A stretch of 64,000 nucleotides of DNA from assembly GCA_903936705.1 (NCBI GenBank), contig CAIZWN010000005.1, forward strand, positions 123,883-187,882. Reading direction: 5' to 3'. Origin of the DNA: an uncultured Myxococcales bacterium (GTDB lineage Bacteria; Myxococcota_A; UBA9042; DTJE01). This document shows, in pieces, positions 42,625-44,778 of the stretch. The notes under the pieces were generated by a model that saw nothing but the letters and a program-made list of their open reading frames with translations, had not been told where the DNA came from and made no database searches. Position numbers and translations under genes: made by a program. The first letter of the stretch is position 1; every line of letters begins with the position of its first letter.

Positions 42625-44778
42625 TTACGGGCTTGACCTCGAAGGGCGCAGCCCCAGGATGTAGCTGCGGTCGCCCGGGACGCTGCCGCTGCGGCTCGCA
42701 GCCCGGGCGTACCTGGCAACGTAGTACCAGGAGCCGCCCCGACCCACCCGGTAAGAGCCCGTTGGCGCGCCTGTCGGATCCGTCACCGTCCCTGGATACG
42801 TCCCGTACCAATCCCCAGTCCACTCCCAAACGTTCCCTAGCATGTCGTACAGGCCCCAGGCGTTCGGGGTCTTGCCCTTGGCTGCGTGTGTCTTGCTGGA
42901 GGAGTTCCCGCAAAACCAGGCAATCGGATCAAGAACCGTGTTTGGCTGTTCGCAACTAATCAACGTACTCGTCCCGTTGTACGTCCCGGTCGTCGTACCT
43001 GCTCTCGCAGCGTACTCCCACTCCGATTCCGTCGGCAGGCGGTAGCCTGTGCAGGTCAGTCCCGCAAACGTTACGCCGGTGCAGGTGTATCCAGACACCC
43101 CAGGTGTTCCCGTGCACCCAGTCAACGTGTAGCACGAAGACAATCCCTGGCTCGACGACAGTTTGTTGCAGTACGCTACCGAGTCCCACCAGGAAACCGT
43201 CTCAACCGGGCAGTCGGTACCGCATGTCGAGAAAGACGACGGGTTGTTACCCATCAATGCCTGCCATTCACCCTGCGTTACCTCGGTCGCCTTCAGACAG
43301 AATGACTTCGAGATCGTTACCTGATGCTCGGTCTCGTTGGTAACACGCCCAGGCTCCGTTGACGGAGACCCCATCGTGAACGTCCCAGACGGGACCAGGA
43401 CGTACCCCAAGGGACAGCCACTGCTTGGGTCGCACACGCCTGCCGTGCATCCGTATTGGCACGTCTGCGCCAAGGACCCTACGTTCCCGCACGAGTCGTA
43501 CCAATAAACGCTCCCGCCTGAACATGCCTTGTGGTCGTTCGCGTTGCAGCACGTTCCCGAAACACACCCGCCCCCAGTGCCACAGGTCGTGCCATCAATC
43601 GCATTGCTCCACACCGAAGTGCTCTTCGTCGTCGTACACACCTTGCACAAGTTCGTCCCGTTCGCCGCACCCTCCGCGTAACACGTCCCGGCGATAAGGC
43701 AGTACCCTCCCTGAAGAGTGTTCGCGCATCCCGACGTCACGTTGCAGAGGTCCTTGGTACAAGCCTTGCCGTCGTCGCAGGCAACGCCCGTCTGCGTGGG
43801 GCAATTCCCACCGGAGCAATTGACCGCTGTGTAGAATTTCCCCAGTTCGCACTTTGCTAGGGCGCATTCCAATGTGTTGTTCGTGTGGCCGCAACCAGCC
43901 AGCGGGTCGCACGAATCAGTGGTGCAGATTTCCCCGTCGTTGCAATCCTGGGGGGTACTGTCGCCAGTGCAAGTATTCGAGAGGCATGTCTGGCCGGGTG
44001 TCAGCTTCAGCAGGTTGCAGGCGCTCTTGGGACAAGTGCCACACTCGACGCCGCAACCGTCGTCGCCGCAGCCCTTGTTCGTGCAATCGCCCACGCAATC
44101 CTTGCAAATCGCGGCTGCGCAGCCGTACGGGCAATCGGCGGTTTTCGCGCCTTTGGCCCCGCAACTGTCGAACCAGCAGACCGCATTCCCGCAGCAACCC
44201 TTCAGGGCCTCGGCCACACACGAACACGTCCCCGCGACGCATTTCTTCCCGTCCTTACAAGTTCCACATTGACCGTCGCAACCGTCATCCCCGCAATTCT
44301 TCCCGTCGCATTTGGGAACGCAGATGTCCGGACCTGTATCCCTGGGCGATACACCCTCGTCGTCTGGTGCGACGTCCGTGTTCGAATCCGGACGCACAAT
44401 CGCGTCGATGTCCTGTGACGAGTCCGGATTCGTACCAAAGTCATCGCGACCATCTAAACCAGGGTCGTTATTCGTGTCCGGCTTGTCGCCAAGGTCCCTG
44501 GCGTCCGCGTCGTGGCTGTCGGACTGCACGATGTCGAGATCAGTCGTGCAACCGGCAGGTGCCGATTCCCCGTTCTTCACGCACACCAACAGACCATTCG
44601 TGGCCGGACATGGAACGCACGACCAACCGCTTCCGCAGTCACCGTCAACCTTGCATTGGAAGTACATGTCCGAAGGAATGCCCTTGTGGCAGGAGATGTT
44701 CAGGATGCAGGCCGACATCAGGATCATCGCGGCGGCCGTCGAGATCGCGCTGTGACGGGTCAAAGGGTTTGTCATCAC
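42625..44778 (-). CDS. DGR target protein: Cys-rich secreted lipoprotein with C-terminal FGE-sulfatase/C-type-lectin-fold ligand-binding domain carrying the VR
   Basis: Signal plus Cys; more than 60 Cys in CxxC/C..GxC repeats; C-terminal RLPTESEWEYAARAG ... GLYDMLGNVWEWTGDWY ... RVGRGGSWYY (FGE/CLec fold). Confidence 0.85.
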   Translation of the reverse strand: MMTNPLTRHSAISTAAAMILMSACILNISCHKGIPSDMYFQCKVDGDCGSGWSCVPCPATNGLLVCVKNGESAPAGCTTDLDIVQSDSHDADARDLGDKPDTNNDPGLDGRDDFGTNPDSSQDIDAIVRPDSNTDVAPDDEGVSPRDTGPDICVPKCDGKNCGDDGCDGQCGTCKDGKKCVAGTCSCVAEALKGCCGNAVCWFDSCGAKGAKTADCPYGCAAAICKDCVGDCTNKGCGDDGCGVECGTCPKSACNLLKLTPGQTCLSNTCTGDSTPQDCNDGEICTTDSCDPLAGCGHTNNTLECALAKCELGKFYTAVNCSGGNCPTQTGVACDDGKACTKDLCNVTSGCANTLQGGYCLIAGTCYAEGAANGTNLCKVCTTTKSTSVWSNAIDGTTCGTGGGCVSGTCCNANDHKACSGGSVYWYDSCGNVGSLAQTCQYGCTAGVCDPSSGCPLGYVLVPSGTFTMGSPSTEPGRVTNETEHQVTISKSFCLKATEVTQGEWQALMGNNPSSFSTCGTDCPVETVSWWDSVAYCNKLSSSQGLSSCYTLTGCTGTPGVSGYTCTGVTFAGLTCTGYRLPTESEWEYAARAGTTTGTYNGTSTLISCEQPNTVLDPIAWFCGNSSSKTHAAKGKTPNAWGLYDMLGNVWEWTGDWYGTYPGTVTDPTGAPTGSYRVGRGGSWYYVARYARAASRSGSVPGDRSYILGLRPSRSSP
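42638..42762 (-). repeat. DGR variable repeat (VR) at the C-terminus of the target gene
   Basis: See TR; the 3'-most 21 nt (minus strand, 42638-42658) are identical to TR (IMH-like region); VR ends 13 nt before the target stop codon. Confidence 0.9.

Follow-up and report, generated by a model that had tools for sequence, protein, structure and literature searches.

A complete chromosomal DGR with Avd and HRDC genes, whose variable region in a lectin-like target gene differs from its template at adenines only

Results

A stretch of 64,000 nucleotides (hereafter the window) contains a minus-strand cassette that is almost certainly a chromosomal diversity-generating retroelement (DGR), serving TR-templated, adenine-directed rewriting of a variable region (VR) in a lectin-like target gene. 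The order along this strand is Ser/Thr kinase, TPR/PEGA, target, HRDC, Avd, reverse transcriptase (RT) and template region (TR), as listed in Table 1. Tens of thousands of DGRs are known, and the element is a routine, complete and standard member of this very large class, the locus itself being new. What the sequence itself establishes is the gene set with its family assignments, the restriction of TR/VR differences to adenines, and the covariation of RNA helices.

Table 1. Features of the cassette and its surroundings (positions in the window)
Feature	Position	Strand	Remarks
Template region (TR)	40483..40607	minus	ungapped match to VR; AAC-rich in VR frame
Variable region (VR)	42638..42762	minus	125-nt ungapped match to TR
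IMH-like stretch	42638..42658 in VR, 40483..40503 in TR	minus	identical in TR and VR
7-bp RNA helix, 5' arm	40475..40481	minus	covariation; directly 3' of TR-specific C 40482
7-bp RNA helix, 3' arm (GTCTTGA)	40423..40429	minus	pairs with 40475-40481
9-bp RNA hairpin, hexaloop UCAAGG	40440..40463	minus	covariation; 20 nt after TR end
13-bp duplex, 5' arm GGTTCGGGGGCGA	40609..40621	minus	just upstream of TR; MFE fold
13-bp duplex, 3' arm TTGCCCCCGAACC	40407..40419	minus	MFE fold
Long GC-rich hairpin (40369-40311), then CGTTTCTTTTC	40300..40369	minus	DNA fold -22.5 kcal/mol, z -3.3
DGR reverse transcriptase	40589..41650 ORF (353 aa); called gene 40589-41626 (345 aa)	minus	RVT_1, E 1.4e-14
Avd, accessory variability determinant	41623..42030 ORF; called gene 41623-41967 (114 aa)	minus	Pfam bAvd PF22296, E 1.7e-16
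HRDC-domain accessory protein, 169 aa	41957..42466	minus	Pfam PF00570, E 1.6e-16
GC-rich hairpin/cruciform, candidate	42500..42524	minus	7-bp stem CCCGCCC/GGGCGGG, GAA loop, and 3 outer pairs
Periodic array	42596..42622	minus	3 nt after target TAA
Target gene, 716-717 aa	42625..44778	minus	Pfam PF03781, E 6e-44
TPR and PEGA protein, 416 aa	44775..46025	minus	Pfam
Ser/Thr protein kinase	46040..47770	minus	Pkinase, E 2.5e-48

Differences between TR and VR

The original prediction had described a 125-bp TR/VR alignment with 17 mismatches, all at template adenines, and re-alignment gave exactly this. On the minus (coding) strand, TR and VR align pairwise over 125 nt with 0 gaps; the TR base is A in 17/17 mismatches, and 0/94 non-A positions are mismatched. 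The proposed count of adenine positions versus substitutions therefore stands at 17 changed out of 31 TR adenines (31/125 nt), with no mismatch elsewhere. The probability that 17 random mismatches all fall on adenines of TR is 6.6e-13 (hypergeometric). At the mismatches VR carries G nine times, T eight times and C never; read on the plus strand these are C or A, in agreement with the prediction.

All 17 mismatches occupy codon positions 1 or 2, and the adenines of TR (n=31) are distributed likewise, 16 at the first position, 15 at the second and 0 at the third. Translated in the VR frame, TR contains 13 Asn codons (12 AAC and 1 AAT); its AAC-richness had been rightly foreseen, the estimate of about ten Asn codons being too low. 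No substitution of any A in TR can produce a stop codon, and over 17 codons about 4e17 sequences are open to the target surface. VR occupies some 41 codons at the end of the target gene, finishing 11 nt short of its stop codon. TR overlaps the end of the RT ORF, starting 19 nt before it (RT stop TGA at 40589-40591).

The last 21 nt of VR (CCTGGGGCTGCGCCCTTCGAG, 76% GC, VR 42658-42638) are identical to TR. The base just past this IMH-like stretch switches, being G 42637 in VR versus C 40482 in TR, and similarity between the two repeats is gone within ~6 nt. An IMH-like boundary at this place, suspected before, is thus confirmed, and the IMH versus IMH* feature of DGRs can be recognized in the 21 identical GC-rich nucleotides followed by GGTCAAGCC in VR and GCTCGAGGC in TR. 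Most of the related loci listed show the same switch (VR AGG(T/A)C vs TR AG(C/T)(T/A)C). Scanning both strands of the 64 kb with TR, at up to 25 non-A mismatches, revealed no third TR/VR copy, and the IMH 20-mer, at up to 3 mismatches, occurs there in TR and VR only.

Accessory genes and related loci

The RT (numbered by its 353-aa ORF) carries IGNLTSQ at residues 192-198 and YMDD at 224-227, and so possesses the motifs (I/L/V)GxxxSQ and YxDD of DGR-clade RTs; these residues are invariant across 26 RT homologues. Its best solved relative is bRT of the Bordetella phage (8ub7, E 1.6e-49, nearly full length), with group II intron RTs far behind among PDB matches (7.8e-21). NCBIfam, which is without a DGR-RT model, gave only RT models scoring below their own cut-offs. 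Avd, an accessory protein of most DGRs, is present and is recognized also by NCBIfam NF033474 DivGenRetAVD (88.1 bits, cut-off 80). Between target and avd lies the HRDC gene, found at the same position in 20/86 related loci (L001-L013 and a few others), all the closest ones included.

Related loci were collected by an RT profile search of genome contigs, which returned 80 useful loci. The best RT identity was 55%, which means that none of the representatives returned comes from the species of the window. The closest RT relatives come from cyanobacteria, Thiotrichaceae, Chloroflexota, Planctomycetota and Myxococcota, and six loci (L001-L006) keep the order target-HRDC-Avd-RT-TR. In most of the 80 loci TR lies within about 60 nt after RT and the mismatches are A-biased. 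When 64 related TR/VR pairs were pooled, 992 changes at A sites (T 431, G 430, C 131) were counted versus 15 non-A changes in 3127 sites; the 8 T, 9 G and 0 C of the window are typical in this light. Relatives from many phyla thus share both the RT-then-TR order and the adenine-only pattern.

RNA structures around TR

Several RNA structures surround TR, as they do in DGRs; two of them, the 9-bp hairpin and the 7-bp duplex, covary, the 13-bp duplex has weaker statistics, and roles are assigned to all three by analogy. In an alignment of 25 sequences, both partners change in 7/7 pairs of the 7-bp helix, and paired cells amount to 81%. By analogy with the TR:Sp duplex of BPP-1 (preprint 10.1101/2023.10.23.563531), this helix may be the template:primer duplex, with A 40423 as the candidate priming nucleotide. 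All nine pairs of the 9-bp hairpin covary (9/9), 93% of its cells are paired compared with about 40% in slid controls, and its single-sequence fold has a z of -2.7. By analogy with the Bordetella element we consider it a candidate Avd-binding stem-loop; 9-bp stems just downstream of TR have been reported for 207/278 Avd-type DGRs. Pooled, the helices downstream of TR show 89% of cells paired versus 36-45% in slid controls, with a covariation score of 0.875 versus 0.14-0.25.

The 13-bp duplex, which brackets TR, is a candidate for the 'cPRT Stop' duplex. Most relatives have cognate duplexes of other sequence, the swap test being weak for the cyanobacterial group, and a restricted test of cognate versus non-cognate duplexes gave support in the closest relatives only. 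Unrestricted duplex folding of the TR flanks produced long duplexes and was uninformative. Further downstream, the long GC-rich hairpin with the CGTTTCTTTTC that follows it is probably where the DGR RNA terminates or has its 3' end. The alignment of relatives shows conserved GGTAG and CGAA boxes inside its stem. A simple terminator scan missed this hairpin because its loop is too long, and Rfam at gathering thresholds had no match anywhere in the window.

Put together, the cassette would function as follows. The minus-strand cassette would be transcribed, and the RNA covering the 3' end of RT, TR and about 180 nt downstream would fold into the conserved helices and bind the RT-Avd complex. RT would then copy TR into cDNA, misincorporating only opposite template adenines, and the cDNA would take the place of VR in the 3'-terminal part of the target gene, as far as the IMH-like boundary. 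By comparison with the Bordetella phage element, we infer that priming takes place at A 40423 and that the cDNA starts next to C 40482; the parts given here to the helices, to the HRDC protein and to the kinase would follow from the same kind of comparison.

Target gene and upstream signalling-type genes

The target protein begins, as read by eye, with a hydrophobic leader with Cys at its end, its middle region is Cys-rich, and residues 459-711 form an FGE-sulfatase/C-type-lectin fold which includes VR. VR lies in the coding C-terminus of a C-lectin-type target, with the TR adenines at codon positions 1-2; the VRs of DGRs are usually found there, in a C-type-lectin or Ig fold. Among solved structures, TvpA, a variable protein of Treponema denticola, matches best (2y3c, E 6e-37). 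The sequence is best explained by a secreted or lipid-anchored, Cys-rich product with a C-lectin-type ligand-binding surface.

The stop of the TPR/PEGA gene overlaps the target start by 4 nt, and the two genes are therefore probably co-transcribed. A gap of 14 nt separates the TPR/PEGA gene from the kinase gene upstream of it, whose product contains one hydrophobic stretch, by eye a probable membrane span, and a repeat tail rich in Pro, Ala and Val. In many homologues the FGE target has PEGA fused to it, and elsewhere kinase, PEGA and FGE form single proteins (P0200 and others). The target probably acts together with these two upstream products, the membrane Ser/Thr kinase and the TPR/PEGA protein. 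The operon-like row, whose kinase and PEGA parts other bacteria join to the lectin domain, agrees with the proposed role of cellular DGRs in diversifying the sensors of signalling systems.

Variation of VR and alternative explanations

Contigs of the same organism were reached by exact protein look-ups. In three metagenome contigs of other samples (L087, L088 and L089) VR is identical to that of the window; elsewhere they differ from the window by 0-3 SNPs, and SNPs outside VR are present in two of them. Among 15 billion proteins, the target protein has only two variants on 12 contigs, which differ at N648T, outside VR, and have the same VR. At consensus level no A-to-N variation of VR was therefore seen among these three contigs and both protein variants; consensus assemblies can hide minority variants, so an invariant VR does not equal inactivity. 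Such variation is a property that an element may show, and an element need not show it to count as a DGR. The break in contig L088 is 43 nt upstream of VR; heterogeneity could be its cause, but need not be. Exact matching of the 20-nt IMH against metagenome contigs gave 0 hits. In close relatives VR variation is seen: L004 and L005 differ by 1 base in 10,165, precisely at a TR-A site of a VR, and the VR of L006 is strongly different.

The original prediction had taken the adenine-restricted pattern as the signature of mutagenic retrohoming. For past mutagenesis this is borne out by RT, Avd, target, IMH, RNA helices and the 64 related pairs, and we regard past retrohoming at the window locus as demonstrated at sequence level; present activity is not something the pattern carries. 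We make no claim of it because VR is identical in all other assemblies of the organism reached. The DGR may even be fixed or quiescent, having diversified VR in the past and undergoing now no (or very rare) retrohoming in the sampled populations, with VR a selected stable allele. We think this quite possible, if on balance doubtful. The VR shared by all three contigs, despite SNPs elsewhere in two of them, points in this direction, as does the single VR of both target variants on 12 contigs; Roux 2021 (PMC8144416) also reports a share of metagenomic DGRs that come out as inactive. On the other hand, all parts are intact, and with 0 mismatches at the 94 non-A positions no decay is visible in the TR/VR pair; RT motifs, Avd and TR-flank helices are preserved; close relatives do vary; and minority variants would be invisible in consensus contigs, the break of L088 being near VR. 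With its intact cassette and a VR invariant across samples, the locus lends itself, as a natural case, to the question of when cellular DGRs switch on.

Two further readings deny the cassette its role as a cellular DGR. TR and VR could stem from simple duplication or gene conversion involving two FGE-domain sequences, with the A bias due to chance or composition. FGE-domain genes are indeed common in the region, a second one lying at 48879-51053, but this gene has no nucleotide similarity to TR, and TR is located at the end of the RT gene, not within an FGE gene. Moreover, chance placement of 17/17 mismatches on A is as improbable as calculated above, the A-only pattern recurs in 64 independent related pairs, and three independent assemblies argue against the RT, Avd and TR arrangement being an assembly chimera. 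From the sequence evidence, the probability of this explanation is negligible and we take it as effectively refuted. It is also very unlikely that we are dealing with part of a prophage or another mobile element in which, as in the Bordetella phage, the cassette diversifies a receptor-binding protein. The block does lie between toxin-antitoxin modules (PhdYefM/PIN at 39525-40222 and MntA/HepT at 47896-48599), and a duplicated 5' fragment of MntA brackets it, hinting at past insertion or rearrangement. Yet in roughly 40 larger ORFs searched with Pfam or NCBIfam (many smaller ORFs lay outside the scan) no phage structural, integrase or transposase genes were found, GC is flat at 0.58-0.65, and the target stands in an operon-like row with kinase and PEGA protein, of which fused kinase-PEGA-FGE homologues exist. 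The neighbour genes encode transporters, glycosidases, CorA, enoyl-CoA hydratase and a sigma-54 activator. The bracketing repeat, 61 nt long and starting at 40238 and 47893, had been considered tRNA-like; ARAGORN finds no tRNA in it, and it is the 5' fragment of an MntA-like gene.

Comparison with known systems

The chromosomal DGR of the window shares with the prototype, the DGR of Bordetella phage BPP-1 (mtd-avd-TR-brt), the adenine-specific transfer from TR to VR, the location of VR in the 3'-terminal part of a gene for a C-lectin-fold target, a 3' limit set by a GC-rich IMH-like stretch, and the presence of both Avd and RT. The BPP-1 element is phage-borne, in contrast to the one described here, which moreover has the order Avd-RT-TR with TR overlapping the RT stop, an extra HRDC gene and a lectin fold of FGE type instead of Mtd type. 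The Treponema denticola TvpA DGR resembles the window element in having an FGE-type C-lectin variable protein; it differs in host lineage, and the N-terminal Cys-rich part of our target has no TvpA match.

An HRDC gene within the cassette is the mark of architecture C DGRs (Wu 2018, PMC5758913), to which the element belongs by gene content, that is by its HRDC gene rather than by RT tree placement. According to the same study, this architecture is found only in the RT clade with the Treponema DGR, and avd accompanies about half of HRDC DGRs. The cassette is also similar to the cellular 'clade 5' DGRs of multicellular bacteria (Roux 2021, PMC8144416; Dore 2024, PMC10907252), which are chromosomal and have a C-lectin target beside signalling genes including protein kinases; the taxa of the closest RTs fit the published description, and the host is probably an uncultured, Myxococcota-like bacterium. 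Within about 4 kb on either side of the cassette no STAND NTPase, MoxR, vWA, TIR or peptidase effector domains were found, and the membrane Ser/Thr kinase and TPR/PEGA protein stand in place of such effectors. One more well-formed example of a DGR changes little by itself, and the locus has some value as a clean, complete reference combining HRDC and Avd.

Periodic array and hairpin downstream of VR

Beyond the target stop codon lies a periodic array, CTTGG-CCCTTGG-ACGCTTGG-ATCCTTG, in which CTTG occurs four times at 7-8-nt spacing. Neither strand of the window contains a second copy, and 0/30 Markov simulations yielded such an array. Too short and imperfect, it escapes TRF. Similar arrays with 7-9-nt periods follow 47/70 related VRs (67%), compared with 1/59 TRs (about 2%) and 121/3320 random windows. 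The sequence of the unit varies by locus and is uniform inside each array.

The array is possibly an undescribed cis element of a large cellular DGR clade and could, as we tentatively suggest, be an acceptor-site mark telling the retrohoming machinery which repeat copy to overwrite; we hold this to be rather unlikely as things stand. It could, for example, offer a multi-site platform to a cassette-encoded protein such as the pentameric Avd. If functional, it bears on how DGRs recognize target DNA. Term searches of the accessible text of Guo 2011, Wu 2018, DiGReF 2012, Roux 2021, Dore 2024 and Handa 2024 brought up no such array, their silence being no proof of novelty. Pairing of the array with the loop of the TR-side hairpin (UCAAGG/CCUUGA) fits the window and fails in L001, L004 and the cyanobacterial loci, and was discarded on that ground.

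In phage DGRs, the GC-rich inverted repeat that follows VR, at a reported 4-34 bp (PMC3240598), has a GRNA loop of 4 nt; only 34% of DGRs possess such a repeat (Wu 2018, PMC5758913). As an acceptor mark, the array would add to or replace this VR-near hairpin. Immediately after VR no such structure stands out in the window, the fold of 42540-42660 being no better than shuffles (z +0.43). The candidate GC-rich hairpin is situated 117 nt downstream of the VR end, with the array between, compared with 4 bp in BPP-1; its DNA fold (-14.1 kcal/mol, z -1.4) is not significant alone. In many relatives, C-GAA-G hairpins likewise come after the arrays, 45-100 nt past VR.

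Template and variable repeats

On the minus strand, the template region (TR) and the variable region (VR) of the diversity-generating retroelement (DGR) align over 125 nt without gaps and with 17 mismatches. At all 17 positions TR carries A, replaced in VR by G (nine cases) or T (eight cases). Since TR holds 31 adenines in 125 nt, the probability that every mismatch hits A is 6.6e-13. The alignment and its adenine restriction, as claimed in the original prediction, are thus borne out, and re-alignment in search of mismatches at non-adenine positions yielded 0 in 94. In the VR reading frame, all 31 TR adenines occupy codon positions 1 or 2, no substitution of them can create a stop codon, and the 17 variable codons allow for about 3.7e17 possible proteins. 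TR translates as TGSNRVNRGGSWNNDARNARAANRNNNDPGNRNNNLGLRPS and is indeed AAC-rich, but its Asn codons, predicted to be about ten, number 13 (12 AAC and one AAT). The 3´-terminal 21 nt of TR and VR are identical (76% GC), again as predicted; at the very next base VR has G (42637) and TR has C (40482), and likeness is gone within a few bases. No third copy of the repeat was found in the 64-kb window.

Coordinates of the DGR cassette and its surroundings (plus-strand numbering)
Feature	Position	Strand	Remarks
Schlafen/AlbA_2 + HATPase_c_4 + winged-helix protein	22371-24230	+
PhdYefM/PIN (VapBC-like) pair	39525-40222	+
61-nt direct repeat, first copy	40238-40298	+
Probable RNA-end hairpin	40369-40311		long, GC; followed by T-rich run
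13-bp duplex	40621-40609 with 40419-40407		first arm just upstream of TR
7-bp helix	40481-40475 with 40429-40423		directly after TR-specific C
9-bp hairpin	40463-40440		loop UCAAGG; between arms of 7-bp helix
TR	40483-40607	-	starts 19 nt ahead of RT stop codon
Reverse transcriptase (RT)	40589-41626	-	IGNLTSQ and YMDD motifs
Avd	41623-41967	-	NCBIfam DivGenRetAVD, 88.1 bits (cut-off 80)
HRDC-domain protein	41957-42466	-
GAA-loop hairpin	42524-42500		7-bp stem
Periodic array	42622-42596	-	CTTGG-CCCTTGG-ACGCTTGG-ATCCTTG; between target stop codon and GAA-loop hairpin
VR	42638-42762	-	ends 11 nt before target stop codon
Target gene	42625-44778	-	FGE-sulfatase-type C-lectin fold, residues 459-711
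TPR/PEGA protein	44775-46025	-	stop overlaps start of target gene
Ser/Thr kinase	46040-47770	-
61-nt direct repeat, second copy	47893-47953	+
MntA/HepT-like pair	47896-48599	+	nucleotidyltransferase and substrate-binding subunit
Second FGE-sulfatase-domain protein	48879-51053	+	fused to GH5 cellulase domain
Bacterial alpha-2-macroglobulin	60778-63960	-

Cassette architecture and related loci

All parts from kinase to TR form a single row on the minus strand. Among solved structures, the best match of the RT is bRT of the Bordetella phage (8ub7, E 1.6e-49), far ahead of group II intron RTs, and the best match of the target is the variable protein TvpA of Treponema denticola (2y3c, E 6e-37).

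More than 5000 RT homologues were found. Six contigs with RTs 55-65% identical to ours keep the order target(FGE)-HRDC-Avd-RT, with TR at the RT stop codon, VRs at target C-termini and mismatches nearly all at adenines. We also collected 80 loci from species-representative genomes (RT identity 36-55%), belonging to Deltaproteobacteria/Myxococcota, Acidobacteriota, cyanobacteria, Chloroflexota, Planctomycetota and Gammaproteobacteria; in most of them TR lies no more than about 60 nt past RT. Of 86 loci, 81 have Avd and 20 have HRDC; every one of the closest loci is among these 20. Pooling of 64 TR/VR pairs gave 992 changed A sites out of 1755 (T 431, G 430, C 131) and 15 changed non-A sites out of 3127. 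The window pair is in line with this pool: 55% of its A sites are changed, to T in 8 cases, to G in 9 and to C in none.

This picture matches the HRDC-containing 'architecture C' of Wu et al. 2018 (PMC5758913), where the avd-RT-TR order is also described, and the taxa of the RT relatives fit cellular 'clade 5' (Roux 2021; Dore 2024). The repeat pair had been correctly read as a DGR; together with its neighbours it follows a known architecture in a standard way and probably belongs to a known clade.

One related locus (L038) carries two identical TR copies (2066-2198 and 6573-6705), two Avd genes and two VRs, and its cassette is therefore tandemly duplicated. Two RT homologues (P0023 and P0112) have a precomputed FGE-sulfatase Pfam match; the simplest explanation is that the RT ORF, as called, continues into TR. 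In that case the match is an artefact of annotation, and surveys that rely on domains could be misled by it.

Past and present activity

Judged from the repeat pair, adenine mutagenesis certainly operated in the past, and the cassette looks intact, with no mismatch at any of the 94 non-A positions. The window genome is represented in the public protein collection. In all three contigs from other samples that cover VR (L087, L088 and L089), VR is identical to that of the window, with 3, 0 and 1 SNPs, respectively, outside it. The SNPs of L087 (43525, 43573 and 43588) fall within 64 nt in the Cys-rich region of the target gene. The target protein is known in only two variants, found on 12 contigs and told apart by an Asn-to-Thr change (N648T, P0136) outside VR, 26 residues (about 75 nt) upstream. 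The few positions at which assemblies of this organism disagree are located in the target gene, none of them in VR. At consensus level, no sign of ongoing diversification was thus seen in the three contigs or in the two target variants. L088 begins at window position 42805, 43 nt upstream of VR; such contig breaks beside VRs can reflect read heterogeneity.

Relatives gave a different kind of record. L004 and L005, contigs from different samples that share one RT, are identical over 10,165 bases but for a single one, located at a TR-A site of VR1 (L004 position 6980), and L006 has a strongly different VR2 (5492-5622) with 27 A-site changes. These sequence differences provide direct evidence that close relatives of the window DGR are active.

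RNA structure on the template side

For RNA helices, we aligned the 200 nt following the last variable TR adenine in 25 loci. A 7-bp helix and a 9-bp hairpin downstream of TR are well supported: 89% of helix cells are paired, a share that drops to 36-45% in controls with partners shifted by 1-3 columns. For covariation, these controls score 0.14-0.25 and the actual pairing 0.875. Changes on both sides occur in 18 of 18 counted pairs (both elements and a 2-bp helix between them). Equivalents of the 13-bp duplex, differing in sequence, exist in most relatives; the swap test supports it in the closer ones only. The DGR RNA probably ends with the long GC hairpin and T-rich run.

For the Bordetella element, a template:primer duplex, a 9-bp Avd-binding stem-loop and a 'cPRT Stop' duplex have been described, and 207 of 278 Avd-type DGRs are predicted to have such features (preprint 10.1101/2023.10.23.563531). 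The 7-bp helix, 9-bp hairpin and 13-bp duplex of the window match these three features in position and size. If the window element works in the same way, A 40423 would prime cDNA synthesis, which would begin at or beside C 40482. This putative start coincides exactly with the end of TR/VR identity, and on the TR side the switch base lies directly ahead of the covarying helix.

A periodic array on the variable side

Where the homology ends, most related loci listed share the one-base switch, with AGG(T/A)C in VR and AG(C/T)(T/A)C in TR. Phage DGRs have a hairpin 4-34 bp from VR (PMC3240598), whereas no GC-rich hairpin of this kind is present near VR in the window; the sole candidate, the GAA-loop hairpin, lies 117 nt downstream (z -1.4).

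The periodic array after the target stop codon is unique within the 64 kb and was found in 0 of 30 simulated sequences. Of 70 non-redundant related VRs, 47 are followed by a similar array with a period of 7-9 nt (L001, L004, L010, L020, L022, L032, L043, L060, L072 and L080 are among the loci bearing them). The corresponding counts are 1 of 59 for TRs and 121 of 3320 (3.6%) for random windows. Where a locus has several targets, every VR is followed by an array of its own. Units are alike within an array and vary between loci (CTTGG, CTTTTAC, CAGCTTTA, TTCTGAA, TGTCCTC); array flavour follows cassette architecture, and arrays are found both with and without HRDC. The array may be a mark of the acceptor copy. 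We found no description of it in the searchable DGR literature, and it may be the only new part of the element.

Target, kinase and chromosomal setting

Inspected by eye, the target starts with a hydrophobic leader ending in Cys, followed by a Cys-rich middle, and the kinase has one hydrophobic stretch, probably membrane-spanning, followed by a Pro/Ala/Val-rich repeat tail; inspection of the translation revealed no sensor domain in this tail. Tandem repeats within the kinase gene (15 nt, 46197-46309; 24 nt, 46386-46452; 18 nt, 46608-46680) encode the tail (PVVAE/K units) and SKE/SRE-type repeats ahead of the stretch. Among homologues, PEGA-FGE fusions are common and single-protein kinase + PEGA + FGE fusions also occur (P0200 and others). 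We infer that kinase, TPR/PEGA protein and target may form a split receptor-kinase system with VR as its ligand-binding tip, in agreement with what has been proposed in the literature for cellular DGRs.

Beyond the cassette, the window is ordinary chromosome, encoding transporters, glycosidases, CorA, an enoyl-CoA hydratase and a sigma-54 activator at flat GC. Named relatives of a housekeeping enzyme belong to Myxococcota, Sandaracinaceae and Archangium (53-60% identity), which makes an uncultured Myxococcota-like bacterium the probable host.

Two toxin-antitoxin pairs, VapBC-like and MntA/HepT-like, lie on opposite flanks of the DGR block. The 7.6-kb block from kinase to TR is enclosed by two copies of a 61-nt direct repeat (80% identity). 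An intact MntA-like antitoxin gene (MRALSHMEESVRRRIL...) begins in the copy at 47896; the copy at 40241, directly after the VapC stop codon, belongs to a similar gene (IRVLSQMNKSVRRQIV...) of which a truncated 5´ fragment is left. This arrangement suggests insertion of the block into toxin-antitoxin modules or its recombination between them. The second FGE protein, encoded on the opposite strand at a distance of 4 kb from the target, shows no nucleotide similarity to TR at its C-terminus and is therefore not diversified by this TR. The Schlafen/AlbA_2 protein and the alpha-2-macroglobulin have no apparent tie to the DGR.
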